Virus record (IMG/VR): IMGVR_UViG_3300020045_005352
Location: 1-50,610 of that record
Source of the DNA: a virus
Lineage: Duplodnaviria; Caudoviricetes
Length of the DNA: 50,610 bases
Strand: one strand, 5' to 3'
The position numbers were made by a program, and so were the translations under genes. The stretch's first letter is position 1. Every line of letters starts with the position of its first letter. The notes beneath the pieces were generated by a model. It did not search any database, was not told the DNA's origin, and saw only the letters and a list, made by a program, of their open reading frames with translations. Below are positions 9,282-25,423 of the stretch, piece after piece.

Positions 9282-9295
9282 CCCCAGGAACCAAC

Positions 9296-10858: not shown

Positions 10859-10902
10859 CTCAAACCTCTTCTCAAGGCTTTCAACGTCAGAAGGAAGAGA
10901 GT

Positions 10903-11109: not shown

Positions 11110-11266
11110 TAGTAAATCTAATAGGTGTAAGAAGTGTGGGTATAAGGTTTATTCTAGCAGTCATACAGGCAAGAAGGTGGTGTATAATCTTTTGAATAGT
11201 AGAGAGCATAGTTGTGCTCGGATAATTGAGGCTAGGAGGAAGCTTGAGAGTACTGTTCAAAGATAG
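11099..11266 (+). CDS. Small zinc-binding protein
   Basis: CKKCG..HSC; GGAGG RBS. Confidence 0.5.
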   Translation: MSNNSKSNRCKKCGYKVYSSSHTGKKVVYNLLNSREHSCARIIEARRKLESTVQR

Positions 11267-12281
11267 TAGATACCACGGCCAGCGTCAATGGGAAAAGCCA
11301 GTTGACATATACCCAGCCCACTTAAGCATGTTCTGTACCTATCTTAGGAACCAGGGTCATGAGGTTGTATGGTTTGGTAAAGATGATGGAAAATTTGACA
11401 GGATTATAGAATCAGATGAGCAGATAGATGTTGAGTTTGATAAGCTTCCTTTGCCAGATAGAAGATTAACTAATTCGATGAATCCTAAATATCTTTCATA
11501 CGGAAATTATAAGATGTCTAGGGGTACACACTATTTGTCTTCTAATCTTTGTTGGTGGGCAGGAGAACGTGGGTGCATATTTTGCCACGATTCTAGCCGA
11601 ATAATTGAAGGTGAGCCTAGACGAGTTAGATCCGTTCAACATGTTATTAATGAGATAGAAGACTGCGTAAGACTTACTCACAATGAGGCTTTTGATGATG
11701 CTGGAACTATACCTATAAATGAGTGGCTTCATGATTTTTGCAATCAAATGATTAAGAGTGGACTAAACAAGAAAATAGTGTTGGGGTGCAACCTTAAGCC
11801 AATAAAACAAGACTTTAAGCTAATGAAAGAAGCTGGATTTCGATTCATTTTGGTTGGTGTAGAGTCGGCAAACCAGAAGACTATAGACATAATTCAGAAG
11901 GGCCAACACTCAGAAAAAGTAGTAGAGAATCTAAAAGCAATGAGTGATGCTGGTCTTGAACCACACGCCACCTTTATGCTGGATTGCCCAGAAGAAACAG
12001 ATGAAGATTGTATGAGAACTGTAAAGTTGGCTCATCATCTCCTTAAAAAAGGTTATGCCAAAACAGCTCAAGCAAGTGTATATAGTCCTCCACGCACTCA
12101 ACCTGACCCAAAGTCTAAGGGTCACAGATATATTCCTATGATTTATGAAACGTACAAGTCTCCGCAGTTTTGGTACCACAAGTTTAAAGACATACGGAAA
12201 ATAGAGGATGTCACATATTTAATCAGAGGAGGCAGACTTGTCGCAGAAGAATACATCAGGAAAACGTTCAGGGTTAGATAA
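11244..12281 (+). CDS. Radical SAM enzyme related to the B12-binding class, with a shortened N-terminal domain
   Basis: CWWAGERGCIFC, RSVQHVINEI, FDD, MKEAGFRFILVGVESANQ, PEET; TTG start after GGAGG. Confidence 0.88.
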   Translation: MRVLFKDSRYHGQRQWEKPVDIYPAHLSMFCTYLRNQGHEVVWFGKDDGKFDRIIESDEQIDVEFDKLPLPDRRLTNSMNPKYLSYGNYKMSRGTHYLSSNLCWWAGERGCIFCHDSSRIIEGEPRRVRSVQHVINEIEDCVRLTHNEAFDDAGTIPINEWLHDFCNQMIKSGLNKKIVLGCNLKPIKQDFKLMKEAGFRFILVGVESANQKTIDIIQKGQHSEKVVENLKAMSDAGLEPHATFMLDCPEETDEDCMRTVKLAHHLLKKGYAKTAQASVYSPPRTQPDPKSKGHRYIPMIYETYKSPQFWYHKFKDIRKIEDVTYLIRGGRLVAEEYIRKTFRVR

Positions 12282-12393
12282 GCAGATTGAAGAGGCTCAA
12301 AAGCAGTATTCAGAGCTTCTGGCTAAGATGAAGGCTATAGGAATTAAGATTAATGATTTGGTGAGTAAGAGGTATAAATAAAAGGAGAATATA

Positions 12394-12573: not shown

Positions 12574-12752
12574 TGCAAGACAGCTTCATTGTTTTAATTG
12601 TTCTATCAATATTTTATCTTATATTTAATGGAATATGTTGCTTTATTCTAAATTCTATTTTGGATAAAGAGTTAGATTATCAAGAAAGTATAGTTTATTT
12701 CTATACAGGAATATCTATATTAGGGCTCATAATTTTAACAACCATAATTTAA
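12573..12752 (+). CDS. Small two-TM membrane protein (59 aa)
   Basis: Read by hand: MQDSFIVLIVLSIFYLIF..LGLIILTTII*; TAATG overlap. Confidence 0.55.
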   Translation: MQDSFIVLIVLSIFYLIFNGICCFILNSILDKELDYQESIVYFYTGISILGLIILTTII

Positions 12753-12774
12753 TAATGGAAATCAGGGTGTAAAA

Positions 12775-13194
12775 ATGAATAATGTAATACAAAGAGGTTG
12801 CGAAGCTGAATTACTAATTGCTGCAGAAGCTATTAAACATGGAATTGTAGTATCTAAACCACTTTCTCATTCTAGTCCTTATGACTTTATTTTTGACAAC
12901 GGAAAAAATGTATTAAAAGTTCAATGCAAGAGAGCATATAAAATGAAAGGTTGGAATAATAAAATAGATTCTTTGTGTGTAGAAAGTAGAAGAAGATATG
13001 GCTTTAAAAAAAATGGAATAAAAATGCAAGGTAAACCATATAGATACAACGATTTTGATGTATTGGTTGCTTGTGAACCTTTAAAAAATAGATTTTGGAT
13101 TCTACCATTTAGTTTTTGTAAGAACTTTAAGTCTGGTATTTACCTAGATACTAAGAAATCAAATATTTATTTGAATAATTGGAAAATGATATAA
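12775..13194 (+). CDS. PD-(D/E)XK homing endonuclease (PDDEXK_5 / I-Ssp6803I-like)
   Basis: RG..AE..G..VSKP..PYDFI..KVQCK..Y..DFD; very AT-rich. Confidence 0.88.
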   Translation: MNNVIQRGCEAELLIAAEAIKHGIVVSKPLSHSSPYDFIFDNGKNVLKVQCKRAYKMKGWNNKIDSLCVESRRRYGFKKNGIKMQGKPYRYNDFDVLVACEPLKNRFWILPFSFCKNFKSGIYLDTKKSNIYLNNWKMI

Positions 13195-13270
13195 ACAATA
13201 AAACGGAAACTCTGTGAAACTCAGAGGCTCAGTCCTGAACGGTAAAGCCCGAATACAAATAAAGGAGAGG
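13166..13270 (+). promoter_or_regulatory. Cobalamin riboswitch (compact, class II-like)
   Basis: GGAAA-CTCTG-TGAAACT-CAGAG-GCTCAGTCCTGAACGGTAAAGCCCGAATAC matches the cobalamin core; loop TCCT is complementary to the AGGA of the downstream RBS; it precedes a BtuB-like gene. The 5' boundary is uncertain. Confidence 0.85.
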
Positions 13271-13271
13271 T

Positions 13272-15047
13272 ATGAAGAAGCTAGTGTTGCTACTGTTGTT
13301 ATCAAGTCCTGCCTACGCCCACAATGGAGAATACCCTGATTTGGATTGTCAAGATTGTACGTTGGATCAGAGGATAGAGGTGGCGTCTGAGGTGCCTATG
13401 GTTCAGTCAGAGTCGGGCAAGTCTACGGATGTGTTGGATTCTTACCTTATAGACCAATATAAAGAGACAAGAGTGGTAGATAACCTCTCTGGGATTCCTG
13501 GAGTTGAGACTAAAAATGCTGGTGGGATATCTACTGTGAGAATCCGAGGTATGCGTTCCTATGATACCAAGTGGCTATACAATGGCGTGCCTATGAAAGA
13601 CCCTACCGAGCCACAGAGTAGCTTCACTCCCTTTGTGGATAACCTGTTAAATATGGGGACAACTGAGGTACAGGTGTTGAAGGGAGTGGGGTCAACGATC
13701 TATGGGTCTGAAGCCATGGGAGGGGTTGTTGATATTGAGCCCCTAGATACACCTTGGAGTTATCAGCAGGAAGTCGGGCATGAGTGGAAAGAAGCTCTCA
13801 CAAGCCCTTACGGGAGTGTAGTTAGGCTTGATAGCCGAGAGTCAGATAATACAAGCTTTAATGTGGGTCACAAGTGGGAAAAAGTAGAACTCTGGGGATT
13901 GTTCATAGATGCAAGTAGTCCAATCAACAACTCGCCATACATCATGGCTAATGAGGTTCACACCGATGAACACGATGAAAATAACAGAAGCGAAGAACGG
14001 TTTGTACATGGGGGAGCAAAGGTTGCACTCGGAGAATTTGGGCAATGGACTGTCTCTGGTTCAGAGTCCAGAAGGAGATTTGTCTTTCTACCGAATGAAG
14101 ATGGTTCGGACTTCTATTCGGACGGGACTTTTACTGGGGATAGTATTTACTCTGATTTGCGCTTTAGTGGCAACCTGGGTACTATTGGGTGGACGTATCT
14201 GAGGGATTGGTATAAGTTTGAGACAGGGGAAGAAGAAGATGAGATTGACAGGTACCAGAATGATTTCTATGTGGAGAAGAAGATTGAGATTGGGAAGGTA
14301 GACTTATTGCTAGGAGGTAGAGAAAGTTTACATGAGAGTACCAAGGCGAGGTTACTATTTGATGTGTCAGCTGTCTATCATGTCGATAAGTCTCTATTGG
14401 TTCGCATACACACAGGGAGTGGATATAGGGCTCCTAGTTTATATGAGCTTAATGGGGCATTCCTGACTGACTTCGGACGCTTTGAGATTGGGAATCCAGA
14501 GTTAAGTCCTGAGAGGTCTACGAGCTTTGATGTGGGAGTGCAGAAGCAGATTGGAGATTTAATCACTCTAGGAGCCACATACTTTAGTAATACAGTCAAG
14601 AATAGGATAGGCTTCGTAGGTGGGAATTATGGGAACATGGAGGGGGATTATAATCCTCATGGAGTAGAGGCGTACTACGAACACTTTTTGTTTGGGTGTG
14701 CGTCAGCACGCATTGCTTATACTAAGACTTGGGCAGAGAATCTGATTGATATCGGGCAGAATAGCTTTGATTTATCACTCAGGGTTGAGAAGAAGAAGTG
14801 GAATGCGAGTGTGAGGGCGAGGATTAGGGATAAGCACACCATTGAACTCTTTGACTATGATACCTTTGAGGTAGATAGGGTGAAGGAAGATGGGTCAGTG
14901 GTGGTGGATGTGACTGTGGGCTACAAGGTTAAGGATAATGTTGAAATCTATGCTAGAGCCGAGAATCTATTCGGTGAGGATTATGAGGTTGGGGCTTATA
15001 GACAGAATGGGGCGAGAGTATATGGAGGAGTAAAGGTGGCACTATGA
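13272..15047 (+). CDS. btuB: TonB-dependent outer-membrane receptor, BtuB-like
   Basis: Signal peptide; plug motifs IPGV..VRIRG..NGVP..VLKG..STIYGSEAMGGVV; barrel motifs GYRAPSLYEL, GNPELSPE, ENLF; substrate inferred from the riboswitch. Confidence 0.9.
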   Translation: MKKLVLLLLLSSPAYAHNGEYPDLDCQDCTLDQRIEVASEVPMVQSESGKSTDVLDSYLIDQYKETRVVDNLSGIPGVETKNAGGISTVRIRGMRSYDTKWLYNGVPMKDPTEPQSSFTPFVDNLLNMGTTEVQVLKGVGSTIYGSEAMGGVVDIEPLDTPWSYQQEVGHEWKEALTSPYGSVVRLDSRESDNTSFNVGHKWEKVELWGLFIDASSPINNSPYIMANEVHTDEHDENNRSEERFVHGGAKVALGEFGQWTVSGSESRRRFVFLPNEDGSDFYSDGTFTGDSIYSDLRFSGNLGTIGWTYLRDWYKFETGEEEDEIDRYQNDFYVEKKIEIGKVDLLLGGRESLHESTKARLLFDVSAVYHVDKSLLVRIHTGSGYRAPSLYELNGAFLTDFGRFEIGNPELSPERSTSFDVGVQKQIGDLITLGATYFSNTVKNRIGFVGGNYGNMEGDYNPHGVEAYYEHFLFGCASARIAYTKTWAENLIDIGQNSFDLSLRVEKKKWNASVRARIRDKHTIELFDYDTFEVDRVKEDGSVVVDVTVGYKVKDNVEIYARAENLFGEDYEVGAYRQNGARVYGGVKVAL

Positions 15048-15250
15048 AAATTGACAATCTAATCTTTTGTATATTCTACTTCTTTTGGGCATTGTCAGGA
15101 ATTATCCCAGTAGTTTGGTTTCATAAGAAACACAAGAATCCAGGTGTCTATGGGTTAATAATTTTTGCTTTGATAATGGGTCCATGCATGATTTTAGAAG
15201 CTATAGAATTTGATAAAAGAGAAGAAGAAAGACATGGTAAAAAAATATGA
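15044..15250 (+). CDS. Small two-TM membrane protein
   Basis: Two hydrophobic segments; ATGA overlap with the receptor gene. Confidence 0.65.
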   Translation: MKIDNLIFCIFYFFWALSGIIPVVWFHKKHKNPGVYGLIIFALIMGPCMILEAIEFDKREEERHGKKI

Positions 15251-15269
15251 AAATGGCAATCCTTGAGAT

Positions 15270-15620
15270 ATGGTGTGCGTTTTATGGAGCTATGCCTTGG
15301 ATAATAGGAGCGTTGACGTTATGGCTGGGTATACGGTTACTGAAGCACCGCAGGTAGAATATTTTAATCTTAATCTTGATGAGAGTGGGTTCTTCTTTCT
15401 GATAAAGCCAGATTTCTCTACTGGTAAGATTCAGGTTGTGATTAAGAATGATTTAGAGATTAAAGAAGTAGTTACTGGGAATAGATGTCAGGATATTTAC
15501 AACTACATCATATTCAACTATGAGCAGTATCTATCCAAGCTTCATTGTTGCTATCTAGGCAAAGAGCTTAAGAAGGCGGAGATTGCTATGGTTACAGGTG
15601 GGAGTTATTATCAGGAATGA
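15270..15620 (+). CDS. DUF4346-domain protein (start uncertain)
   Basis: LDESGFFFLI..DIY..HCCYLGKELKKAEIAM..G..Y.QE. Confidence 0.75.
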   Translation: MVCVLWSYALDNRSVDVMAGYTVTEAPQVEYFNLNLDESGFFFLIKPDFSTGKIQVVIKNDLEIKEVVTGNRCQDIYNYIIFNYEQYLSKLHCCYLGKELKKAEIAMVTGGSYYQE

Positions 15621-15643
15621 AGCTTAATCCATTCCATAATTAC

Positions 15644-16366
15644 TCAGACGGAAGCCTTGCTTGTAGGTGGGGAGACCACGGGGATTGTATCAACTTGAAG
15701 TGTAGGTGTGATTGCCACTTTCTTCTTAAGAAGGAAGATAAAACCACGGGAGAAGAGTGATGGGAACCTATCCGCAAGGAATTGATGAATGGGCTCTGGT
15801 ATCAACTTTAATATTTGACCAACCCAAGGCTGCTTTGAACCAAGAGCAGTTGGAGACACGTAATATAATTGCTTCGCCGTCTGAAAACCTGCGCTTTCTA
15901 GGAAAGATTTGCCTTGTTTCAGACTCGGGAGGTGCAAGTGTTTACCTTGACCTGCAAAGCAGTCCCCGTCAACAATCCCAAAGAGACATCGAATCCTATG
16001 AAAAGCACTTGCTTCATTGGGTAGAGAAACAACTAGGTAGCCCTCTTCAGGAAGGCTCTTATAAATGGATTCCAAACTATCGAGCGGGTCAAGAAGATGT
16101 TCAAGAGTCTCAAGGCAAAGAGCAAGGTTACAAGGAATAGGTTCAAACCCGTGGTTTAAGTCCATCACTTTAGTCTCTTTATGATAAGCCTTCTGGTCAA
16201 TCCCGATATACTTAGTATTCCTAGGGAAATACTTCCTAGCCTCCCAGGTGAAGCAACCTACGTCTAATATGGTGGAAGGATTCTTGTCATCCTGACTTAG
16301 GTATGGGAGAAGAAGTCGTGCTGACTTCATCACCCTGTCACGGGCGTATTTGTCTTTCCGATACAT
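15644..16366 (-). CDS. Class I SAM-dependent methyltransferase
   Basis: ILDVGC, YIGID, ETLEHL, GYLVVSLPN; start put at ATG 16366 (frame open to 16480). Confidence 0.9.
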   Translation of the reverse strand: MYRKDKYARDRVMKSARLLLPYLSQDDKNPSTILDVGCFTWEARKYFPRNTKYIGIDQKAYHKETKVMDLNHGFEPIPCNLALCLETLEHLLDPLDSLESIYKSLPEEGYLVVSLPNEASAFHRIRCLFGIVDGDCFAGQGKHLHLPSLKQGKSFLESAGFQTAKQLYYVSPTALGSKQPWVGQILKLIPEPIHQFLADRFPSLFSRGFIFLLKKKVAITPTLQVDTIPVVSPPTSKASV

Positions 16367-16382
16367 ATTATCCCAAGGAGTT

Positions 16383-17456
16383 TTATCCGTGGAGACCGAT
16401 GGAGAGGTATCTGAGGAGGCGCTTGATATAGTATGCTCTAGGTGTCCTAGAAAAAATAAAGTTAAAAAGCTCCCTATCACTTATCACCCTTCTTTCTTGT
16501 ATTTTTCTTCTTTTCTTTGCGGTAGCGGGATATCTCATGATTGATTGACTCAATCCACGGAATATGTTCACTCCCTGGGTCACTTTTAAAGTGCAAATCA
16601 TAGCAAGTCCAGCAATAATCCAGCAGGTTATGTGTATAGGCAATATTCTCCATAGCATCTTTCCTCCTAAATTCTTCTGAAGCATCACAATGTAGTTTCG
16701 GCATCCGTTGAGGTGAACCCTTGATGAGGTGTAGTATTCTTTGGCTGGTTTGAATTTAGTATTGAAAGCATGATATCCAACAGCTTCAGGCACGAAGCAC
16801 ACTCGAAAGCCGGTAAGCCACACCCGCCATGAGAGATCAGTTTCTTCTCCCAAGATTTCAAAGTCCTCATCGAAGCCTCCTACTTTAAAGAATATTTCCT
16901 CACGCATTATGCAAGAGGCGGATTTACCTGCAAGGATGGTGGAGTGATAGTCATACTGTCCAGTATCTACATCATTCTGCCCTGCACGAGACCAGATGAA
17001 GCCAGTAGCTGTTAGGAAGCCGCCTGCTTCATCGAATCGGTTCCTATTCTCCATGTTGTACAGCTTTCCGTATGCCATACCTACTTGTGGGTTGGAGTCC
17101 ATGAATTGCTTATACTTGAGTAGGCAGTCTGAGTTAATCTCAACATCATCATCGAAGAAGGCTAAGTATCTGCCACTGGAGATTCTAGCTCCTGAGTTAC
17201 GCTTAGAGGCTGGGTATTGGTCACCACTGTGTACCTTGCACCCTGGGATACCTGTGACAGCTAGGTGGTCATCGGAGGTGATGATGATAATCTCATAGGT
17301 CACACCAATGGATTTCTTGACCGACTCCACAAACTTATGCACAAAGGTGCCTTTATGGTGGCAGCAAATTATTGAGATTTCAAATGGATACTTTAAAGAT
17401 TCCGAAGAACTGCTTCCTGATTTTGTCCGCATTGTAATCCAGTTGGTAGTATTCAA
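16383..17456 (-). CDS. GT2 glycosyltransferase
   Basis: ISIIC..RNSGA..YLAFFDDD..GGFDEDF..EETDLSWR; true start may be about 60 nt downstream. Confidence 0.92.
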   Translation of the reverse strand: MNTTNWITMRTKSGSSSSESLKYPFEISIICCHHKGTFVHKFVESVKKSIGVTYEIIIITSDDHLAVTGIPGCKVHSGDQYPASKRNSGARISSGRYLAFFDDDVEINSDCLLKYKQFMDSNPQVGMAYGKLYNMENRNRFDEAGGFLTATGFIWSRAGQNDVDTGQYDYHSTILAGKSASCIMREEIFFKVGGFDEDFEILGEETDLSWRVWLTGFRVCFVPEAVGYHAFNTKFKPAKEYYTSSRVHLNGCRNYIVMLQKNLGGKMLWRILPIHITCWIIAGLAMICTLKVTQGVNIFRGLSQSIMRYPATAKKRRKIQERRVISDRELFNFIFSRTPRAYYIKRLLRYLSIGLHG

Positions 17457-17631
17457 TCATTACGTTAAGCCCTGTGCCGGAGATGAAGGCTAGGGCATTC
17501 TTGCCTACTTCCATACGTTCTTTGTGAGTAAGCCCTTCCGCATTGGCGTCATGTCTATTGCCAAAGATGTAAGAAGCGGACACAAAGGTATCCACTAGGC
17601 TTGATAGAGCCATGGTGGTAATAAATACCAT
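17380..17631 (-). CDS. Hypothetical protein
   Basis: ATG 17631 within ORF 17380..17814; fills the gap between two genes. Confidence 0.5.
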   Translation of the reverse strand: MVFITTMALSSLVDTFVSASYIFGNRHDANAEGLTHKERMEVGKNALAFISGTGLNVMIEYYQLDYNADKIRKQFFGIFKVSI

Positions 17632-17641
17632 GTTTCTATAG

Positions 17642-19063
17642 TCAACCTGTACCGTAGCGAGGGTTGAGCCAGAGGTACTTGATGGGTGTTTGCACCCATT
17701 TATCAAGTCTCTTGCGAGAGTAAGCGAATTTGACCCTGCTTCTGTCAAGGGATTCTCCGTCTTTGTTTGATTTAAACCAGTCATGCTCACCAGAGCCGTC
17801 TGGGTTATTGTCATTACGCCATTTTGCCATGAGTTTTAACTGCATACCACCTGAGTAACCGAGGGTTCTAAGGCGGTTGATATGACCTGTGAATAAAGGG
17901 TAAGGAAGCCCAGAGACTCGTTCATCAGACTTTAAGTTAGCCTGTAGATACCTAGTTAATGGGGTGTTAAAGGCTCTAGAAGGCTTCTTTGGTAGCTCGG
18001 AGTATGGCAGAGTGGGTATTAGGTCAGAATTGTTGTACCAGAGGTCAAAACAGGTGATGATTATTAATGCCAGGATAGCCTCGGTAGGTAAGTGGAGGTC
18101 CTTGAGGTTCGCTGTCGCCCACCATCCAAGAGCAAATTGGAAAGTGAAGCTAAAGCGGGCAGGGATTCTAGGAAGGTGCTTGGATAGGAATCCTAGCATT
18201 AAAAGGAGACTTACTACGGCGAGTATCCAGACTCGGCTTGTCGAAGCCCTTGAAGAGATTAGGACAAGCGGGACAATTCCCACGTAGTAAGAGGTTTCCC
18301 AGTAGCCAATCGCAAGCGACTGAGACCTGAAAAGTTTGGGGAAGATGAGACTGCCTAAGTGCCACCAGGGGACTTTGCCTATGGTAGATACCTTGTGGGT
18401 ACGGATAGTCTTAGGCAAGTATTTAATGAAAGGAATAAGCTGTGGAAGGCCTATTAATATACCCAATGGAACCCACATGAGGTTCCGACCCCACAGTAGG
18501 GACGCAAGTCCACTCACGCCAAGCGTCTGTATTCCTAGAGGGTAGTAGCCTGCTAATAGGGTCATACCACAGCTTAAAGATGAGAGCCAAAGATTGTTTG
18601 TAGATATACCATAGAGAAGCCATGGGAACCAAGCTATGGTGTAGAGGATACAGGGTTGCTGTTTGATGTTGTAGGCAGAGTAGGTGAGGACAAGTGCTCC
18701 AAAGACTGACACGAGTGGGCTTGTCCAGGTTGAAATAAGAAGAAACCAGCCAATAGAAGCCAAAAAAGAATGACAATGTTGCATAGCAACAAACACATTA
18801 AACATTCTATCTTGTCCCAATTTCCTTGTAAGCATTGCGGATATTTTATGAGGAGGGTAAAAGCTAGAGAGCACAGGATGAGCATTAGGAACGAGCCAAA
18901 AATAATCACGTTTATCTCCTCTACCTTGATGTATCCATGATGGAAAGAACGTTGAGAGTAATTCACTGCGAGCCATACTGAAAGGATTACTGTAGACCTT
19001 CCAGAAGAATAATAGGTGGAATAGACCTAGAAAATAGAAGGGTAAGCCTGCCAACTCGTACAA
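17642..19063 (-). CDS. Multi-TM membrane protein, YfhO/GT-C-like
   Basis: Many TM segments; FYPP, WFPWLL, LAGY, QLIP, YVGIVPL, RIPARF patterns. Confidence 0.7.
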   Translation of the reverse strand: MYELAGLPFYFLGLFHLLFFWKVYSNPFSMARSELLSTFFPSWIHQGRGDKRDYFWLVPNAHPVLSSFYPPHKISAMLTRKLGQDRMFNVFVAMQHCHSFLASIGWFLLISTWTSPLVSVFGALVLTYSAYNIKQQPCILYTIAWFPWLLYGISTNNLWLSSLSCGMTLLAGYYPLGIQTLGVSGLASLLWGRNLMWVPLGILIGLPQLIPFIKYLPKTIRTHKVSTIGKVPWWHLGSLIFPKLFRSQSLAIGYWETSYYVGIVPLVLISSRASTSRVWILAVVSLLLMLGFLSKHLPRIPARFSFTFQFALGWWATANLKDLHLPTEAILALIIITCFDLWYNNSDLIPTLPYSELPKKPSRAFNTPLTRYLQANLKSDERVSGLPYPLFTGHINRLRTLGYSGGMQLKLMAKWRNDNNPDGSGEHDWFKSNKDGESLDRSRVKFAYSRKRLDKWVQTPIKYLWLNPRYGTG

Positions 19064-19872
19064 TTCTTACAAGCTCCTTTGTATATCTTGTTTAAGTGTT
19101 CTTGCCTGATTTCTTCAAGCCTCTTAGACTTCCAAACCTCTTCCATTGATGATTCTGGATACTTCCCAAGGACTTCATATCCGAGTTGTGGGACATTGCA
19201 ACAGAAGGTAATTTCGCCATTCCATCGCACAGCCGGTGCAAGCCAGAGGTGGTAACAGGGGTAGCGAGAGGGAACTTTATCCCCACTAATCCCCCACTTA
19301 TTAACATCTATGTTTCCTCCATAATTATGCAAATGCTTTATTTCAACCCTTGGGAACGTCTTCCACTTTTCAAACTCTCCTTTCGGCGTTTCTTCGACGA
19401 GCAATCGAACCATCCCGATTTTCTTGAGTACCCCAATGGTGTGAGAGTCAAAGTTATTTTTCCTCCAGGACCAGATAATCCTATCCACTCCACATGCCAG
19501 GAGGTCTCGGGAGAATTTGTTAAGAACCGTTCCATTCGTCGTGAGAAGGATTGTATGTCGCTTGTCTTTTTCCTTAATGTATCGTATAGCTTCCAATATT
19601 CTGGGGTAGAGGAGGGGCTCGCCGAAAAGGTGTAGAGAGAAGGAGCGTGGTCCATAGTGGTTGCACTCATCGATGATGCTTTTGAACATTTCAAAGTCCA
19701 TGTCCTCCTTACGTTTCTCTCTCGGGCAGTATTCGCAGGAGAGGTTGCAATTTGCGGTGGTCTCTATAAAGATGTGTCTAGGAAACTCTCTGTCAATATA
19801 AGCTTGAGCCGCTAATTTATATACTGGCGTCGGCAGTAACCGGACTAGCGGAGTTAGCGACGTTATTTTCAT
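19027..19872 (-). CDS. Radical SAM/SPASM-domain protein
   Basis: CNLSCEYC, FGEPLL, TTNG; C-terminal C..G..CC..CKNC. Confidence 0.92.
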   Translation of the reverse strand: MKITSLTPLVRLLPTPVYKLAAQAYIDREFPRHIFIETTANCNLSCEYCPREKRKEDMDFEMFKSIIDECNHYGPRSFSLHLFGEPLLYPRILEAIRYIKEKDKRHTILLTTNGTVLNKFSRDLLACGVDRIIWSWRKNNFDSHTIGVLKKIGMVRLLVEETPKGEFEKWKTFPRVEIKHLHNYGGNIDVNKWGISGDKVPSRYPCYHLWLAPAVRWNGEITFCCNVPQLGYEVLGKYPESSMEEVWKSKRLEEIRQEHLNKIYKGACKNCTSWQAYPSIF

Positions 19873-21289
19873 TACGGGTTCTCCACGAGTCCTTCATTTT
19901 GCTTTCGGGAATCATTGTCATTTTCAACAAGGATATCCCTGCCGAAGCATACCTCTTAAACTGACCAAAATTACGCACTTCCTTGATTCTGTCAACGACG
20001 AAGCTAGGTTGTAGGTAAAACTTACCGTAGAACCAACGCAGGTGGCTCTCCAATTCTTTACGGGTATAGATTGAATCCCAAAGCGGGGGGCGGAAGTCGT
20101 CGTTAATCTTGCGGGCATAGTCCCTCCATGGGTCTCCTTGGACTACTCCTTCCTGAAGTGCTCGGAGATAGATTTGGGTTGCGGGGAAAGGAGAGAGGAT
20201 GGTCATTTGCATGAAGTCGGGCTTTATTCTCCTTGAGACTCGTAGGGTGTCTTTTACGTCCTCCATGGTCTCTGTGGGATTACCCATCATGAAATAGGCG
20301 AGGGTCTTGATGCCGTATTTCTTACAGAGGTCAAAGGCTTTCTCAACCTGCTCTATGGATGTACCCTTCTGCAATTCCTTAACTACTCTAGGATTCCCAG
20401 TCTCTACACCAAAGTGAATACGCTCACAGCCTGCCTCTTTCATGGATTTCAGGAGTTCTTCATTGACTACATTGACTCTAGTTCTAACATCCCATTTAAT
20501 CTTAATATTCCGCTTCTTGATCTCATCACATATCTGTTGCACCCTTTTCATGCTCACCGAGAACGTGTCATCATAGAAGAAGATTTCTTTGATCCCGTGA
20601 TTCTGGCACCATTCCATTTCGTCTGCGACCCTGGAAGCGTCCATGGCTCTAAAGCCTTTTCCAAGAGCAGGGCGGTCACAATAAGCACAACTAAAGGGAC
20701 AGCCACGAGAGCTAAAAGCAGTAGTAGTAGGAGTATCGGCAGAAAGAACAGAATAGTATTTATCAATATCAGTAAGTTCACGAGCGGGGAACGGGAGTTC
20801 ATTTAAGTCCTGTATGAATTTTTCTTGGCGGTAGATTCGGTTAGTTGCTTTGCCTAGAGCGATGTCTTGGCAAAGAGTGTCCATGGTTATTTCGCCTTCA
20901 CCGACTATGACGTAATCGGCGTTTAGTCCATCCTTTTCGAAGCATTCCTCTGGGTAGATGGCGGTATGAGGCCCACCGATTACAATAGTAGTTTTGAGAC
21001 GCTTACGGATTTCTTGAATGGTGAGTTTTACATCAACGAGGGTAAATGTCATGGCGGTTAAGCCCACGATATCTGGCTTGAATTGCAATACTTCCTCGGC
21101 TACTTCTGCATGGTCTTGACCAGAGGCTTGGGCGTCAATAACCTTAACTTCATAATCCTTCGCCTTGAGACAAGCCGCCATGTAGAGAATTCCGAGGGGG
21201 GGATAAATACCTTGCTGGTCCTTGATGATAACGGGGTCGTTACCGATTAATTCGTAGGTGTTGGGAACGTTAATCAGGCATATTTTCAT
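19817..21289 (-). CDS. B12-binding radical SAM enzyme (class B methyltransferase-like)
   Basis: PPLGILYMAA..PDIVG..GGPH..GEGE..LPFPAR..SRGCPFSCAYC..DDTF..GVETG. Confidence 0.95.
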   Translation of the reverse strand: MKICLINVPNTYELIGNDPVIIKDQQGIYPPLGILYMAACLKAKDYEVKVIDAQASGQDHAEVAEEVLQFKPDIVGLTAMTFTLVDVKLTIQEIRKRLKTTIVIGGPHTAIYPEECFEKDGLNADYVIVGEGEITMDTLCQDIALGKATNRIYRQEKFIQDLNELPFPARELTDIDKYYSVLSADTPTTTAFSSRGCPFSCAYCDRPALGKGFRAMDASRVADEMEWCQNHGIKEIFFYDDTFSVSMKRVQQICDEIKKRNIKIKWDVRTRVNVVNEELLKSMKEAGCERIHFGVETGNPRVVKELQKGTSIEQVEKAFDLCKKYGIKTLAYFMMGNPTETMEDVKDTLRVSRRIKPDFMQMTILSPFPATQIYLRALQEGVVQGDPWRDYARKINDDFRPPLWDSIYTRKELESHLRWFYGKFYLQPSFVVDRIKEVRNFGQFKRYASAGISLLKMTMIPESKMKDSWRTRNENNVANSASPVTADASI

Positions 21290-21846
21290 GTGAGCCTTTG
21301 GGTTCCTGGATATTGTTGTATCAAAGTTTCTAATAATAGTAAAGCTTTATTCGGTTTACTATACCATAGTTTACAGAAAAGGTTAGTGGGATTCGTACCG
21401 CCTACTATGTCGAAAGGGTGGAGGTAGAATATCGGGTCATTGGGAATCTTAGTTTTAAACCACATGTGCTTGAGTAATCCTACGTGACCTTTCGGGTTGG
21501 AGTAGATGTCTTGGGTGATGTAGTTGAATTTTGGCGCTCTATATCTCGCTTCTTTGCCAACATACTGTAGCGATAAATCTTTGTCCGCTTGTCTCCTAAA
21601 GCTTTCTTTAAAGACCGTGTGGAAATGACCATGCGATCCGACTTCGTGGCCGAGACCCCTAATGCTTTCAATAAGTCTAGGGTAATCTGTCGTGAGCTCT
21701 GTGGAGATAAAGAATAATCCACGTATGGAGCGTTTTTCAAAAGCTCGAATAATTTTAGGCAGTCCTTCCTTGATTCCTCTGTGCTCATTGGTTCTACCTC
21801 CCCAATCTTTTTCAACATCTACCGTCCAAGTAAACTTCTCATCCAC
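21286..21846 (-). CDS. Polysaccharide deacetylase (NodB/CE4-like)
   Basis: TVDVE, GHEVGSHGHFH, YRAP, YLHPFD. Confidence 0.88.
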   Translation of the reverse strand: MDEKFTWTVDVEKDWGGRTNEHRGIKEGLPKIIRAFEKRSIRGLFFISTELTTDYPRLIESIRGLGHEVGSHGHFHTVFKESFRRQADKDLSLQYVGKEARYRAPKFNYITQDIYSNPKGHVGLLKHMWFKTKIPNDPIFYLHPFDIVGGTNPTNLFCKLWYSKPNKALLLLETLIQQYPGTQRLT

Positions 21847-22553
21847 TTTCTAAACTTTCTTGTGCGTAATGCTAGACCTACCCAAGTGATGTAATAGAGA
21901 GTAACCAAGCCATCCTTGACCACTTTTACATGAGATTTGCCAGAGGCTCTAGGTTGTACATCTATTGGAAAGTAGGTCATCTTATGACCATCTGTGACCA
22001 TAGCCATAGTGAGGCTAGTTGTGAAGCTAAATGTGTCACAAAGGATTGGAGAGTAGTTAATAGCTGATTGGCGGTCAAATACTCTCATGCCTGAGTTTAA
22101 GTCACTAAGGTAATGTCCTGAAATACATGAAGCTACAAAGTTTAATACCTTTCTTCCCCACCACCGAGTTAATCTCTCATTGAGGTTCCAACGCTGACCA
22201 ACGACCATCTTTAAGTCTTCGTCAAGTTTATAGATGGTGTAGAGTCTGAGTACATCGTTGACTAAATGCTGGCCATCTCCGTCCATCGTACAAACTACTG
22301 GATTAGTAGCTTGTTTGATACCCTCTTTGATTGCGTAGCCATAACCCATGTGGGGTTGATAAGTGTGGTAGTAAATGTCATCTGGCAAGTCCATGGTTTG
22401 ACCGTCATCGACAATGATAACTTCTGCACCTAGAAGTTTCAGCTCACAGTAAGTCTTTGTGACTAACTTTGGGTCTTCATTAAAACATGGGATAACTACC
22501 GACAACCCCTCTAGTGACGAGAAGCTCTGAGTGCGAAGTATAGGTTGAGCCAA
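21819..22553 (-). CDS. GT2 glycosyltransferase, polyprenol-phosphate sugar synthase (DPM/GtrB-like)
   Basis: VVIPCFNE, IVDDG, GYGYAIKEG, MDGDGQH, DLNSGMRVF. Confidence 0.9.
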   Translation of the reverse strand: MAQPILRTQSFSSLEGLSVVIPCFNEDPKLVTKTYCELKLLGAEVIIVDDGQTMDLPDDIYYHTYQPHMGYGYAIKEGIKQATNPVVCTMDGDGQHLVNDVLRLYTIYKLDEDLKMVVGQRWNLNERLTRWWGRKVLNFVASCISGHYLSDLNSGMRVFDRQSAINYSPILCDTFSFTTSLTMAMVTDGHKMTYFPIDVQPRASGKSHVKVVKDGLVTLYYITWVGLALRTRKFRKWMRSLLGR

Positions 22554-23053
22554 TTTGTGTATGTCTCCAGTTTAAACACCTTAGATACTTCCGAGAGTAT
22601 CTTGGCGTGAGAGTTGCGGATGTTCTTATCTTTGATTAGTTTGTAATAGAATCGGCTCTGTGGTGTATCCATGGGAGAAGCGATTATTAGCTTAGAGTCC
22701 TGTTTCATCATACCTTTGAGAAGATTGAGAGTGTGGGGTAATTGGCAGAATTCCAATACACTACAGCACACTATCACATCAAACTTCCAGCGTTTGTCTA
22801 TGATGTCGTTGATGTCGAATTGTTTAACAAAGAGGGCTCGCTTCTTCAGCTCTGGAACCAAGATTCCCTGACCTGAGCCGAAGTCTAGGACGTTGTGGAC
22901 TGTAATCTTTGGGAATAAGTTTAAAGCCATGCGGAGTTTATGGCGGTAAAATAGTCTGTAGGGAAACTTATAATACTTATCCACAGCAAAGTTCCCTTTG
23001 CCCTCAAGGTGCTTTATCTCGTTATAGGGAGGAAGCGTAAGGCGGTGTAGCAT
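22511..23053 (-). CDS. Class I SAM-dependent methyltransferase
   Basis: VLDFGSGQG, FDVIVCCSVLE. Confidence 0.88.
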   Translation of the reverse strand: MLHRLTLPPYNEIKHLEGKGNFAVDKYYKFPYRLFYRHKLRMALNLFPKITVHNVLDFGSGQGILVPELKKRALFVKQFDINDIIDKRWKFDVIVCCSVLEFCQLPHTLNLLKGMMKQDSKLIIASPMDTPQSRFYYKLIKDKNIRNSHAKILSEVSKVFKLETYTNWLNLYFALRASRH

Positions 23054-23256
23054 ATTAATCCTGTAACTGTGATTGCGGTCAAGAATGTCAGTACCTTATC
23101 AAAGATATAAAGTTTCACAGCTTCTTTCATAACATCTCGTACTGGGATGTTAAGTTTCTCCATACGTTCTATGAGTTCTGTGGAGTCATCGATGAGAGGC
23201 TTTAGGGTGTACTCTATGAAAGCCCCAAAAGGCTTAGGGTCAGGTGAGAGTTGCAA
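23014..23256 (-). CDS. Small membrane protein
   Basis: C-terminal TM helix. Confidence 0.55.
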   Translation of the reverse strand: MQLSPDPKPFGAFIEYTLKPLIDDSTELIERMEKLNIPVRDVMKEAVKLYIFDKVLTFLTAITVTGLICYTALRFLPITR

Positions 23257-23614
23257 GGATATCGTGTTCCCTAATTAACTGGAGGTCTTTACCATTGTGC
23301 TTAAAACGTTGTCCAGAGTGTTTACCGAAGCGAACATTAGTGCCAACCTCCAGATGAAGTTTGGTAGTGGGTCCCCTTGAAACTATCACCCCTGTCTCTG
23401 GAAGATTCTCATAGTAAGCTTTAAACTCCCCTGGGATTTCAAGGAGACCATCATATTTAGCCGGAGGGTCAGTCTCTACCAAATACAGGTCATTTAAAAC
23501 CTTCAAAGTGGGTGAGGGTGATTTCTCCTGCTTCGTTGATTTCGTAGACCGCGCCGCACCAGTGGCACGTGTAGCGGATTTCACCTGAGACTTTTTCAAG
23601 TTCTTTTTGGTCAT
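23240..23614 (-). CDS. groES: GroES-like co-chaperonin (true start probably near 23506)
   Basis: LKVLNDLYLVE..GLLEIP..GVIVSRGP..VGTNVRFGKHSG..LIREHDILA. Confidence 0.82.
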   Translation of the reverse strand: MTKKNLKKSQVKSATRATGAARSTKSTKQEKSPSPTLKVLNDLYLVETDPPAKYDGLLEIPGEFKAYYENLPETGVIVSRGPTTKLHLEVGTNVRFGKHSGQRFKHNGKDLQLIREHDILATLT

Positions 23615-23642
23615 TAGGACAGAACCTCCCCGTTTTGGTCAT
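23490..23642 (-). CDS. Small zinc-ribbon protein
   Basis: FCPND..YTCHWCG; ATGA overlap with the upstream GT. Confidence 0.5.
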   Translation of the reverse strand: MTKTGRFCPNDQKELEKVSGEIRYTCHWCGAVYEINEAGEITLTHFEGFK

Positions 23643-24595
23643 ATCATTCGCTGATTTTTCATCCATAGATATATCCATACCCACGCCCGATAGGCGTATG
23701 TTCTCAAGCCTTTTTGGATCCACTTGCCTTCCCATTTCTTTTGGAAGTAGATAAAGTTTTCCCAGCGGTGTTTTGTTTTAAGCCTAGATGTATAGATTCC
23801 GCTTGTTGATGGTCTATGCTCGAGTGAAGCTTTTTGGGTATACCATAGCTTACCTTTGTACTTAAGGTTGAGTGCGAGGTCGACTTCACACCATTCTGAG
23901 GTTCGAGTAAAATGGAGGTCGTATCCTCCACAAGCGACAGTCTCTGTCCTTCGCACCGCCATATTGCAGGCTTCCAAGTAGTCAACTTCACCTTCATAGC
24001 AGGCTCTATCGTCGCATGAAGCGAGCGAGGGCGTTCCGGAAGGAGAAAGGTATCCAGGGCGACTTGCCTGCCCATATAGGAACAACTTATCATGTAGGTC
24101 TTTGAACCATTTATATTTGAAGATATCTCGGTTAAGTTTAAATTCAGAACTGATTTTGGTTGGACCTGAGACACCTACAATACCCTCCCTGAAACTACTA
24201 ATGACACCTTCCAACCAATTTGGCGGGCAATAAACGTCATCATCAATAAACGAAACAATATTTCCTCTTGCGCTCCGAAGCCCTTTATCCCGAAGTTCTG
24301 ATAGATTGCCTTTTTCTGTAATGAGGATGACCTCAAAATCTTTGTAAGTTTGGTGGCAGAGAGAGGTAAGTGTTTCATTTAGCGACTCGGGGCGACCGTA
24401 GGTGCAGATGACGATTGAAACAGCTTTCCTATGAATAATCTCATTACTAGGAATCCGTACGTAAATACCGTCATTAAACATATCAAGGGATGGAGAAACC
24501 ATGCCTTGTCTTGAATCTTCGAGTAGCCTCGTATCGAAAGGTACAACGGTTCCACGAGGGTTAAGCTGAAGAAAATGAAGAGTAGGAATCGACAT
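23639..24595 (-). CDS. GT2 glycosyltransferase (true start probably downstream)
   Basis: VSIVICTYGR..FIDDD..CNMAVR..GGYD..EVDL. Confidence 0.92.
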   Translation of the reverse strand: MSIPTLHFLQLNPRGTVVPFDTRLLEDSRQGMVSPSLDMFNDGIYVRIPSNEIIHRKAVSIVICTYGRPESLNETLTSLCHQTYKDFEVILITEKGNLSELRDKGLRSARGNIVSFIDDDVYCPPNWLEGVISSFREGIVGVSGPTKISSEFKLNRDIFKYKWFKDLHDKLFLYGQASRPGYLSPSGTPSLASCDDRACYEGEVDYLEACNMAVRRTETVACGGYDLHFTRTSEWCEVDLALNLKYKGKLWYTQKASLEHRPSTSGIYTSRLKTKHRWENFIYFQKKWEGKWIQKGLRTYAYRAWVWIYLWMKNQRMI

Positions 24596-25254: not shown

Positions 25255-25423
25255 CTAAAAATTCCTGATAAGTTATTAGCCATTTATGTTCTGTACAGAA
25301 ATCACCCTGCCATCCTTGTCTAAAATAAACTAAGATATAATTTCCTTTATCTACAACATAAGTCAAAAAGTCCATATTGAAATACTTTTCTTTATGAACC
25401 TTCTCGAATTTAACTAGTCTCAT
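25226..25423 (-). CDS. Hypothetical protein
   Basis: 65 aa ORF overlapping both neighbours. Confidence 0.55.
   Translation of the reverse strand: MRLVKFEKVHKEKYFNMDFLTYVVDKGNYILVYFRQGWQGDFCTEHKWLITYQEFLDAIKSSNPL

Follow-up and report, generated by a model that had tools for sequence, protein, structure and literature searches.

A BtuB-like outer-membrane receptor behind a candidate cobalamin riboswitch in the glycan-gene neighbourhood of an uncultured tailed phage

The window analysed here is a whole IMG/VR phage record (IMGVR_UViG_3300020045_005352; 50,610 nucleotides) with a CheckV completeness of 95%. It contains capsid, portal, Sak4 and primase/helicase genes and is a near-complete genome of an uncultured tailed phage. 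The features discussed below are as follows (G001, G002 and G004 are related phages).

11226..12281, plus strand: derived class-B-type radical SAM enzyme, 351 aa (PF04055, E 1.4e-14)
12775..13194, plus strand: PD-(D/E)XK endonuclease (PDDEXK_5; PF11645, E 1.9e-16)
13166..13263, plus strand: class-II (AdoCbl-II / AdoCbl-variant) cobalamin riboswitch aptamer with an 8-bp closing helix (RF01689 and fold)
13263..13274, plus strand: Shine-Dalgarno sequence AGGAG (13263-13267) and start codon (13272-13274), read from the sequence
13272..15047, plus strand: BtuB-like TonB-dependent outer-membrane receptor, 591 aa, intact (Plug, E 2.9e-15; TonB-dependent barrel, E 2.6e-28)
15044..15250, plus strand: 68-aa protein with two hydrophobic/transmembrane segments (weak sub-threshold Pfam match only)
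15270..15620, plus strand: DUF4346 (PterinBD-DUF4346) protein (PF14251, E 1.5e-10, 42.2 bits against a cut-off of 29.6)
15644..16480, minus strand: SAM-dependent methyltransferase, last gene of the minus-strand glycan cluster (PF13489, E 7.6e-12)
16383..17456, minus strand: family-2 glycosyltransferase (Pfam; orthologs 34-50% identical in G002, G004 and G001)
17642..19063, minus strand: 473-aa protein inside the glycan cluster (orthologs in G004 and G001; no Pfam or NCBIfam match)
19027..19872, minus strand: radical SAM / SPASM-domain enzyme (PF04055, E 1e-11; PF13186, E 2.9e-9)
19817..21289, minus strand: full class-B (B12-binding) radical SAM enzyme, 490 aa (PF02310, E 1.2e-25; PF04055, E 7.6e-30)
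21286..26360, minus strand: rest of the glycan-tailoring cluster (Pfam; conserved in part in relatives), comprising a polysaccharide deacetylase, a GT2, a methyltransferase, a Cpn10-like protein, a second GT2 and a GDP-mannose 4,6-dehydratase

The riboswitch and the genes for the receptor, the 68-aa membrane protein and the DUF4346 protein form a 2.45-kb operon (the cassette) at the variable edge of the conserved glycan cluster, convergent with the methyltransferase gene. The slot is bounded by the radical SAM gene at 11226..12281 and the GT2 gene at 16383..17456, both with conserved, syntenic counterparts in G001, G002 and G004; in related phages the same slot is filled by other glycan genes. 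The endonuclease, which has no ortholog in G001, G002 or G004, may be a mobility gene, and the 5' strand of the closing helix of the riboswitch falls in its terminal codons. Judged from sequence, the phage thus arranged appears to carry its own B12-type outer-membrane importer behind a B12-sensing RNA switch, near B12-dependent sugar-modifying enzymes.

An Rfam gathering scan of the whole window gave a single match, to RF01689 (AdoCbl-II) at 13187-13262 on the plus strand, with a score of 37.6 bits that exceeds the gathering score of 36.5 by 1.1 bits (E 2e-5 for the whole window and all families; E 4.8e-9 in a single-family search). An earlier note on this sequence had placed a cobalamin riboswitch, starting at 13166, about 15 nt before the receptor gene. 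The riboswitch stands and its start is accounted for by the closing helix, which pairs 13166-13173 with 13256-13263 in both the MFE and centroid folds; the spacing requires correction, as the aptamer ends 9 nt from the receptor ATG at 13272. Core motifs are common to this element and a natural RF01689 riboswitch of 71.9 bits (L309), which also precedes a TonB-dependent receptor gene, in a 1.2-Mb alphaproteobacterial genome. The P3 helix is eroded (four of five P3 pairs are absent from the Rfam alignment), the aptamer folds no more stably than shuffled sequence (z 0.65) and a 31-nt A/U-rich insert separates the 5' strand of the closing helix from the core.

The Shine-Dalgarno sequence begins immediately 3' of the closing helix, unlike in L309, where there are 83 nt with a separate hairpin. 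The element can be compared with env8HyCbl (Johnson 2012 as cited in Polaski 2016, PMC5028336). The two share the Rfam family and the junction and L5 sequences, and translational control is expected in both; the Shine-Dalgarno region of the window contains GAGA, which in env8 L13 (G96-A99) is the kissing-loop tetranucleotide. In contrast to env8HyCbl, P3 is mostly missing, the A/U-rich insert precedes the core and there is no room for the 7-nt linker and P13 hairpin because the Shine-Dalgarno sequence starts directly after the closing helix. According to the same source, the studied class-II switch requires the ribosome-binding site in the P13 hairpin, linkers of 0-4 nt give no regulation, and RF01689 (env8HyCbl) favours hydroxo- and methylcobalamin over AdoCbl (PMC5028336). 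Given this departure from the studied design, the element in the window could be a non-functional relic or could work by a different geometry. The riboswitch control that had been proposed therefore holds as far as an RF01689 match above the gathering score, and is qualified by a borderline score, an eroded P3 helix, an atypical expression platform and the presence of the riboswitch in only this phage among those examined.

The receptor gene is intact, as had been reported, with no stops, and encodes a signal peptide, a TonB-box-like RIEVAS segment, and plug and barrel domains. Its top NCBIfam family is TonB-B12, although far under the cut-off of that family; it falls well below both BtuB equivalog cut-offs (88.5 against 599.7 bits and 71.1 against 836 bits), and a heme/hemoglobin receptor family nearly ties (81.5 against 88.5 bits). 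The top 11 Foldseek PDB matches of an AlphaFold2 model (pLDDT 73.4) are all E. coli BtuB, at about 19% identity, and the matches include the complex with colicin E3 (PDB 1ujw). In the tree, the receptor belongs to a tight clade (support 100/99) that includes 15 metagenomic proteins and the receptor of an unrelated phage, G009. This clade is nested (92/95) among cobalamin-riboswitch-linked receptors of BtuB type, apart from the E. coli siderophore receptors (FepA, CirA and FhuA), as the earlier note would predict; E. coli BtuB itself falls outside the riboswitch-linked set. RF00174 lies directly upstream of the receptor in 21 of the 30 loci of the nearest cellular or metagenomic relatives (9/11 and 12/19), which, together with the TonB-B12 assignment and the structural matches, points to a BtuB-type receptor.

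The clade was found neither in 185,579 reference species genomes, where the best full-length identity is about 23-28%, nor in a JGI metagenome scan, and it looks virus-specific. It is diversified: the closest relatives of the receptor are 39-54% identical, and an alignment of 17 members has 58 invariant columns, with the plug, TonB-box-like segment and barrel conserved in all 17. The window holds no TonB_C, ExbD, MotA_ExbB, FecCD or Peripla_BP_2 domain, in agreement with the earlier failure to see TonB/ExbBD or BtuCDF.

The two smaller genes of the cassette are also as previously described. The ATG of the 68-aa protein overlaps the receptor stop codon (ATGA), and the two genes appear to be translationally coupled; there is no counterpart of this protein beside the G009 receptor. 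The public gene call for the DUF4346 protein is 99 aa, giving a start at 15321, which is likely to be the true one. Outside the window, a receptor of the clade, P0007, and a DUF4346 protein, P0114 (63% identical to that of the window), are each a singleton on a contig recorded with one and the same length, 45,552 bp, and with the same sources; independent carriage by such a contig is probable. In cells, a B12-radical SAM homolog was near the DUF4346 gene in seven of 80 loci and a TonB-dependent receptor in none of the 80; cellular DUF4346 shows no tie to B12 uptake. DUF4346 may nevertheless handle the cofactor after import, because in phages it is found repeatedly alongside receptors of this clade and elsewhere it is fused to pterin, one-carbon and corrinoid enzymes.

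Both B12-type radical SAM enzymes that had been noticed were recovered. The protein at 19817..21289 has the B12-binding and radical SAM domains, with the canonical CxxxCxxC segment visible in the alignment. That at 11226..12281 has B12-radical SAM families as its best NCBIfam matches, through the radical SAM core only; it is 58, 43 and 34% identical to its orthologs in G001, G002 and G004, respectively, and, compared with the 483-aa G004 ortholog, is short of about 100 residues in the B12-binding domain. The SPASM enzyme is 56% identical to its G001 ortholog. The gene content suggests that the phage lineage carries a conserved glycan-tailoring cluster whose enzymes include radical SAM proteins of the cobalamin-dependent class B. 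Methylcobalamin is an intermediate in the cycle of class B radical SAM methylases, and the ligand preference of RF01689 would fit such enzymes; this is counted in favour of the best reading.

B12-binding radical SAM genes are present in seven of eight related phage records (4/5 and 3/3), whereas the receptor and DUF4346 are each found in none of the eight, and neither riboswitch family was found in any of the five related records tested. The lineage therefore has the importer as an optional addition, not as an integral part. Among 50,697 cultured-phage records only two have B12-radical SAM homologs, both copies of one phage. G009 shares just five BLAST-detectable proteins with the window: the clade receptor (33% identity, E 3e-91), a B12-radical SAM enzyme, a SPASM radical SAM enzyme, a further radical SAM enzyme and an HNH endonuclease. 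It further encodes a DUF4346 homolog, a SAM synthetase and its own glycan cluster. The G009 receptor gene sits within a run of phage genes that all point the same way, about 38 kb from DUF4346 and more than 25 kb from the B12-radical SAM gene; it has only about 31 nt upstream of it and no riboswitch at E <= 1. G009 thus combines the clade receptor with DUF4346, B12-radical SAM, SPASM radical SAM and SAM synthetase genes independently. For the proposal of an importer supporting B12-dependent tailoring, the parts are real, phage-borne and found together again in G009, as the co-occurrence check had anticipated; the distribution in the relatives tells against a fixed association.

The closest known arrangement is bacterial btuB under a cobalamin riboswitch (E. 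coli/Salmonella; RF00174 or RF01689), in which a B12-sensing leader likewise directly precedes a plug-and-barrel receptor and the same logic, repression at plentiful B12, is expected; the RF01689-receptor pair of L309 is a further natural example. The version in the window differs in being phage-encoded, in having no btuF/C/D or tonB alongside, in the low identity of its receptor to E. coli BtuB and to the cellular relatives found, and in having a stripped-down RF01689 instead of the RF00174 of the nearest of these. The cofactor genes cobS/cobT are auxiliary metabolic genes of cyanophages and cobaviruses and similarly are host B12-metabolism genes that presumably sustain a B12-dependent step in infection, but they act in intracellular cofactor assembly and not in outer-membrane uptake under a dedicated metabolite sensor. 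Huge (Lak-type) phages, which have genomes of >200 kb and gut Prevotella hosts as opposed to the 50 kb and B12-specific context here, also encode a 22-strand TonB-dependent receptor; the portion of the report available proposes receptor interference and gives no substrate, riboswitch or B12-enzyme link (10.64898/2026.10.24.761521). The glutamine riboswitch of the OM43 phage Melnitz is, like that of the window, a metabolite-sensing RNA borne by a phage of aquatic bacteria, and its description terms riboswitches 'a rare feature in phages'; here the ligand class is cobalamin and the controlled gene a transporter, and it is the host, not the phage, that has the cobalamin riboswitch-btuB pair described for Melnitz (PMC9004378).

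The cassette could be read in several ways. A BtuB look-alike might remodel the outer membrane of the infected cell, for superinfection exclusion or as a decoy for phages or colicin-like toxins, serving no nutritional end and with the riboswitch as inherited baggage. BtuB is a common receptor of phages and colicins, the clade looks virus-specific, as expected under phage-phage conflict, and the G009 receptor has no riboswitch. In addition, receptor-level interference has been proposed for the TonB-dependent receptors and other β-barrels of huge phages (10.64898/2026.10.24.761521, 2026 preprint). We nevertheless consider remodelling unlikely: conservation of the plug, TonB-box-like segment and barrel throughout the clade points to selection for transport, a decoy has no need of a B12-repressed switch, and the rare B12-radical SAM genes together with DUF4346 in both receptor-bearing phages are left without an account. 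Equally improbable, in our view, is a neutral or recent passenger, in which a host btuB operon was captured, perhaps via the neighbouring endonuclease, with no adaptive role and a decaying riboswitch. The variable cargo slot beside that endonuclease, absence from all eight relatives, the borderline score and eroded P3 of the riboswitch and the codon usage of the receptor gene (r 0.47, third lowest among 30 genes) are consistent with such a capture. However, the receptor is intact and its clade diversified, no cellular donor was present among the reference genomes, and the nearest cellular receptors have RF00174 and not RF01689, so simple copying in recent times does not explain the cassette; its independent occurrence in G009, and probably in the 45.5-kb contig, speaks for selective retention.

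Import of something other than cobalamin for the phage metalloenzymes (another corrinoid or precursor, heme or a metal complex) is less probable again. The missed equivalog cut-offs, the near tie with the heme family, the position of E. coli BtuB in the tree and the several iron-sulfur radical SAM enzymes of the phage would allow it, but a cobalamin-class riboswitch precedes this receptor gene as well as most of those of its nearest relatives, and the best structural matches are BtuB. The least probable reading by far is a chimera, with host DNA misjoined into a viral contig or a prophage flank. The window is a metagenomic assembly, and the artefact does occur: the IMG/VR contig L002 is a prophage end, in which a host RF00174 riboswitch and receptor come after a large serine recombinase. 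Here, the cassette is internal, with 13 kb of contig on one side and 35 kb on the other; the early genes scanned include no integrase, and the receptor clade, missing from the searched reference genomes, occurs in a second phage. Host contamination is made very unlikely for the cassette by its variable slot between genes in an order shared with relatives and by its phage-like GC content (receptor GC 0.453 and GC3 0.459, inside the range of the phage).

We favour, with a probability of roughly 0.55, a feedback-controlled cofactor-import module that supports B12-dependent glycan tailoring by the phage, and for it we infer cobalamin binding, transport and expression timing along the following lines. 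The operon would be transcribed with the plus-strand early/replication module. At low free cobalamin in the infected cell, the Shine-Dalgarno sequence after the aptamer would be open and the receptor translated; with plentiful cobalamin bearing a small upper ligand (hydroxo- or methyl-), the folded aptamer would mask it and switch translation off, as suggested by the RNA family and by where the Shine-Dalgarno sequence lies. The receptor, with its signal peptide, plug, barrel and TonB-box-like segment, would be exported and take its place in the outer membrane of the host. Host TonB-ExbBD would power uptake and a host inner-membrane system would complete import, the phage encoding no such partners. 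Judging from co-occurrence, the imported corrinoid would then load one or more of the phage class B radical SAM enzymes, which would tailor a glycan. Taken together, the analysis suggests that some phages supply a cofactor needed by their own enzymes.

The elements described in the earlier note are all present in the 50,610-bp record: an RF01689 (AdoCbl-II, class-II cobalamin) riboswitch, an intact 591-residue TonB-dependent receptor, a protein with two transmembrane segments, a DUF4346 protein, a full B12-binding radical SAM enzyme and a derived relative of it. The record is a linear, complete IMG/VR entry with a CheckV completeness of about 95%. Genes on the plus strand (379-15620) form the replication and early module, while those on the minus strand (15644-50600) comprise a glycan-tailoring cluster followed by the structural genes.

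Features of the window (positions, strand, description)
1261-1746 (+), HNH endonuclease, early region
9296-9712 (+), HNH endonuclease, early region
13166-13263 (+), riboswitch
13272-15047 (+), TonB-dependent receptor
15044-15250 (+), 68-residue protein
15270-15620 (+), DUF4346 protein
19817-21289 (-), full class B radical SAM enzyme (PF02310, E 1.2e-25; PF04055, E 7.6e-30; CxxxCxxC motif seen)
43753-44673 (-), major capsid protein
46918-49203 (-), portal

A Sak4-type annealing protein and a primase/helicase are also encoded, as are further nucleases (the two HNH endonucleases, one exonuclease and one ERCC4-type nuclease); no integrase was found among the genes scanned and no tRNA in the window. 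The capsid family numbers 531 proteins at E <= 1e-20, many of them from contigs of about 50 kb, and a capsid search of the species genomes returned a single distant match (32%, in a Pseudomonadota MAG). Judged by its capsid, the phage belongs to a widespread uncultured lineage. Among 50,697 cultured-phage records there was neither a DNA match to the cassette region nor a protein match to the receptor or the DUF4346 protein. Two further genes of the glycan-tailoring cluster were noted. One, in the middle of the cluster, encodes a Cpn10/GroES-like co-chaperonin (23240-23614, -; PF00166, E 8.7e-7); the other encodes a 473-residue protein (17642-19063, -) with no Pfam or NCBIfam match, which is kept in the glycan clusters of the related records G001 and G004 (32% identity).

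Related IMG/VR records were found by portal and capsid searches, and the window was compared gene by gene with three of them (G001, G002 and G004). All four share the structural module and the glycan/radical SAM cluster. The cassette lies between two conserved genes, a radical SAM gene (11226-12281, +) and a GT2 glycosyltransferase gene (16383-17456), so that this synteny places viral genes on both sides of it rather than a prophage flank. The same slot in the relatives holds genes for a GT2, a HAD hydrolase, an epimerase and a methyltransferase, and it can therefore be regarded as a variable edge of the glycan cluster. The GC content of the receptor gene (0.453; GC3 0.459) is within the phage range; its codon-usage correlation (0.47) is low, the third lowest of 30 genes, yet also within range. 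As far as can be judged from sequence, the cassette is a genuine part of the phage, and we give almost no credence to an assembly artefact, against which the conserved flanks speak. Immediately 5' of the riboswitch, and overlapping the closing helix, is a PD-(D/E)XK endonuclease gene (12775-13194, +). This enzyme and the two HNH endonucleases may be of the homing type, which could explain the entry of cargo into the slot.

The IMG/VR contig L002 (12,774 bp) was considered as a second viral riboswitch-receptor case. It carries a large serine recombinase (7109-8644), a classical cobalamin riboswitch (RF00174, 9578-9794) and a receptor from 9920, and was rejected because this arrangement is a prophage-host junction in which the riboswitch and the receptor are host flanking DNA. 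The L002 receptor thus sits at the end of a prophage, whereas the window cassette is internal. L002 is nevertheless catalogued as viral, so automated counts of viral btuB genes should be treated with care.

The receptor is intact from its ATG at 13272 and has Pfam plug and barrel domains, a signal peptide and a TonB-box-like segment; the features that define BtuB (a plug, a 22-strand barrel, a signal peptide and a TonB box) are thus found in it. An I-x-V-A-S segment is conserved across the receptor clade and, from a by-eye comparison with the known motif, we take this to be the TonB box. The AlphaFold2 model (pLDDT 73.4) shows the plug and the barrel, and Foldseek places E. coli BtuB at ranks 1-11 (E 2.4e-25 to 5.9e-22; TM-score by target 0.64-0.73) with siderophore receptors below it, a ranking to which similar size contributes. 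The BtuB equivalog models are not passed (TIGR01779, 88.5 against 599.7 bits; NF007926, 71.1 against 836 bits), although TonB-B12 is still the top NCBIfam family, with a heme-receptor family close to it at 81.5 bits.

A database search returned 16 relatives of the receptor at 39-54% identity, all of them metagenomic. Below them there is a gap in score, from 355 bits (or 415 bits if only full-length members are counted) to 119 bits, where the cellular proteins begin; some of these carry the source name 'vitamin B12 transporter'. In the species genomes (one each for 185,579 species) and the JGI metagenomes, the full-length relatives found reached only about 23-28% identity, and IMG/VR scans with the receptor, as a single protein or as an alignment, gave distant matches or the otherwise unrelated phage G009 only. 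An RF00174 riboswitch lies directly 5' of the receptor in 21 of the 30 such loci checked (9/11 and 12/19), several of the remaining loci ending before the upstream region.

A maximum-likelihood tree was built from 35 rows, including four E. coli references; L002 (fragmentary ORF) and P0017, a partial relative of 384 residues, were dropped. The window receptor, 15 metagenomic relatives and the G009 receptor form a clade (100/99) that falls inside the riboswitch-linked group (92/95) and is separate from E. coli FepA, CirA and FhuA. The suggestion that the receptor belongs with cobalamin rather than siderophore transporters is borne out to this extent, but E. coli BtuB is itself outside the riboswitch-linked group, its long branch joining those of FepA and CirA (95/75). 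What identifies the window receptor as BtuB-like is accordingly its riboswitch linkage, its fold and its HMM rank, not a grouping with E. coli BtuB. As in its nearest relatives, the window receptor has a cobalamin riboswitch upstream, here of the RF01689 class. The clade appears to be confined to viruses, and the substrate of the window receptor is probably cobalamin; some other substrate, to which the neighbouring heme-receptor score might point and against which the riboswitch linkage and the fold would count, is quite improbable.

RF01689 is the sole above-threshold Rfam match in the window (13187-13262, +; E 2e-5), and the riboswitch named in the earlier note was thereby recovered. The match is full length (1-81 of 81), and its score of 37.6 bits exceeds the gathering score of 36.5 by just 1.1 bits. 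Of the pairs in the Rfam alignment, four of six are kept in P1, the other two being mismatched, and one of five in P3. The minimum free energy and centroid folds both contain an alternative closing helix of eight A/U-rich base pairs (13166-13173 with 13256-13263); the fold energy of the region is not better than that of shuffled sequences (z 0.65). The aptamer core (the GGAAA junction, the L5 loop, and the AACGGU and CCGAAU segments) matches both the family consensus and an alphaproteobacterial riboswitch-receptor locus, L309. The window RNA is predicted, from its family, to bind cobalamin with a small upper ligand.

L309 comes from G127, a 1.2-Mb genome and the only one above the RF01689 cut-off among 151 sampled from the Alphaproteobacteria; the L309 riboswitch (locus positions 1501-1593, 71.9 bits) precedes a TonB-dependent receptor starting at 1677. 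According to PMC5028336, the studied member of the family, env8HyCbl, prefers hydroxo- and methyl-cobalamin over adenosylcobalamin and represses through a kissing loop between L5 and a hairpin, P13, that bears the ribosome-binding site; regulation requires L13 to sit in a stem-loop and is lost when the linker is 0-4 nt long. The window switch does not have the P13 hairpin with a ribosome-binding site after a linker of about 7 nt that characterizes the studied class-II design. Its Shine-Dalgarno sequence (AGGAG, 13263-13267) abuts the closing helix, and only 9 nt separate the end of the Rfam aptamer from the ATG, whereas 83 nt, with a separate hairpin, precede the start codon in L309. Given this unusual placement relative to both env8HyCbl and L309, the window switch would be either a more direct design or a relic without regulation. 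In a direct design, the closing helix and possibly a contact between L5 and the Shine-Dalgarno sequence would hide the latter. The tetranucleotide GAGA, which pairs in env8, is present in the window Shine-Dalgarno sequence, so that direct docking of L5 could take place. Promoter and terminator predictions for 12200-16600 did not stand out from those for shuffled sequence (14 found, against 10.8 on average in the shuffles, and 3 against 2.0). The shared Cbl-II core was found in no stretch of IMG/VR by a motif scan; the pattern is narrow and this is therefore weak evidence of rarity.

The second radical SAM gene, 11226-12281, does not qualify as class B: its B12 domain is mostly deleted, with about 100 residues of that domain missing relative to the 483-residue ortholog in G004 (L196:2013-3464, -), and its cysteine motif is Cx7CxxC. 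The G004 ortholog likewise has Cx7CxxC in place of the canonical CxxxCxxC, and the two class-B-derived enzymes may form a phage subfamily of their own.

None of the eight related records (G001-G008) encodes the receptor or the DUF4346 protein, and neither RF01689 nor RF00174 was found in the five that were tested. B12-binding radical SAM genes are present in seven of the eight, often two or three per genome, the exception being a 20-kb fragment. The lineage as a whole is thus characterized by the enzymes, to which this phage has added the importer. Of the 50,697 cultured-phage records just two, which are copies of one Streptomyces phage, contain homologs of the B12-binding radical SAM enzyme. 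That both phages with the receptor have such genes is thus unlikely to be due to chance, with the proviso that the background rate may be different in uncultured aquatic phages.

The other receptor-bearing phage, G009 (58,665 bp; loci L299-L301), was found by an IMG/VR search with DUF4346. It is otherwise unrelated, in that only five of its called ORFs match window proteins at E <= 1e-4.

Features of G009 (positions, strand, description)
15553-15813 (-), DUF4346 protein
25707-26828 (-), SAM synthetase, directly beside the B12-binding radical SAM gene and within the glycan cluster
26822-28228 (-), B12-binding radical SAM enzyme
53237-55135 (-), receptor

The G009 receptor is a member of the window receptor's clade, with 33% identity to the latter (E 3e-91) and a score of 500 bits with the clade profile. 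About 31 nt lie upstream of it, and no riboswitch was detected at E <= 1. A SPASM radical SAM protein and a further radical SAM protein are also encoded, and the glycan cluster includes a GT2, a GT9 heptosyltransferase, two GT4 enzymes, methyltransferases, a GHMP kinase and a nucleotidyltransferase. With a SAM synthetase and a receptor of this clade, G009 appears to provision both radical SAM cofactors. The idea that importer and B12 enzymes co-occur across viruses therefore holds for G009, which has the receptor, DUF4346 and a B12-binding radical SAM enzyme, but it does not extend to the eight relatives, nor does the riboswitch extend to G009. A 45,552-bp contig is a likely third case of receptor plus DUF4346: the receptor relative P0007 and the DUF4346 homolog P0114 (63% identical to that of the window) are each a singleton on a contig of that length from the same two sources. 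Separately, a capsid relative (P0163, 78% identical) and a DUF4346 homolog (P0133) are both recorded on a 36,733-bp contig from the same source, with no receptor relative recorded there, which suggests that another member of the window's phage lineage carries DUF4346.

The public gene call for the window DUF4346 protein is 99 residues long, corresponding to a start at 15321. Nineteen DUF4346 proteins (alignment A2, standalone proteins of about 100 residues) share the invariant C-terminal motif AYLGKELKKAEI ... YYQE. An atlas comparison shows DUF4346 fused to thymidylate synthase, DHPS-like pterin-binding, MtrA (corrinoid-binding subunit) and ferredoxin domains; the profile has no significant PDB match, and a full-text literature search found no papers on the family. 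Standalone cellular forms come mainly from Omnitrophota, Planctomycetales and DPANN archaea. A B12-binding radical SAM homolog lies near DUF4346 in just seven of 80 cellular loci (L202-L281), against none of 80 receptor loci in a control set that is not taxon-matched, and a general linkage between the two was rejected. A TonB-dependent receptor was near cellular DUF4346 in none of the 80 loci; the data do not support a role in B12 uptake. That DUF4346 handles a pterin, a one-carbon unit or a corrinoid cofactor is a reasonable guess. The 68-residue protein has two hydrophobic segments, and its start overlaps the receptor stop codon (ATGA); it gave no informative match and has no counterpart beside the G009 receptor.

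Taken together, these data are best read as a phage auxiliary module in which a B12-type cofactor would be imported through an outer-membrane receptor of the phage's own making, under the control of a cobalamin-sensing leader, and would supply B12 radical SAM enzymes in glycan tailoring; we put the probability of this reading at slightly above one half (roughly 55%). As the earlier note remarked, the window encodes no TonB/ExbBD or BtuCDF system (TonB_C, ExbD, ExbB, a FecCD-type permease and a BtuF-type binding protein are all absent), and import would rely on host TonB and host inner-membrane transport. We infer both the timing of cassette expression and the delivery of the cofactor to the radical SAM enzymes. 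A bolder version, which we offer tentatively and lean against, is that a virus-specific BtuB-like lineage moves with DUF4346 between unrelated phages and is kept only where B12 radical SAM chemistry runs. The result would be a cofactor-provisioning kit comprising import, handling or recharging of the corrinoid by DUF4346 and, in G009, SAM synthesis, placed here under a minimal riboswitch that hides the Shine-Dalgarno sequence without a P13 hairpin.

Two further readings rank lower. Receptor remodelling or exclusion leaves the cobalamin-type leader and the accompanying B12 enzymes to be accounted for; we regard it as unlikely. We hold a similar opinion of the cassette as a neutral passenger with a decaying switch: the eroded P3 helix and the borderline score would fit decay, while the intact receptor speaks against it.

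Auxiliary metabolic genes of phages are known for photosynthesis, nucleotides and some steps of cofactor assembly, and B12 is a scarce, traded vitamin in aquatic communities. To our knowledge, phage glycan clusters with class B radical SAM enzymes are almost unstudied. The components described here are all of known kinds, and it is their combination in one phage that appears to be new. The literature searches turned up neither a vitamin uptake receptor that is encoded by a phage and gated by a metabolite nor a phage riboswitch-btuB pair, although the supplements of the huge-phage preprint and of PMC5028336 may list further receptors or expression-platform variants. Phage-encoded TonB-dependent receptors (10.64898/2026.10.24.761521) and phage riboswitches (PMC9004378) are known separately. 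If the import reading is correct, the window would provide a natural cobalamin switch of very small size, which may not need a P13 hairpin to work, a receptor clade seemingly confined to viruses and the first functional lead for DUF4346. Some phages would then be limited by B12 during infection and would answer by importing the cofactor, and viruses would control the uptake of B12 from aquatic communities by infected cells.
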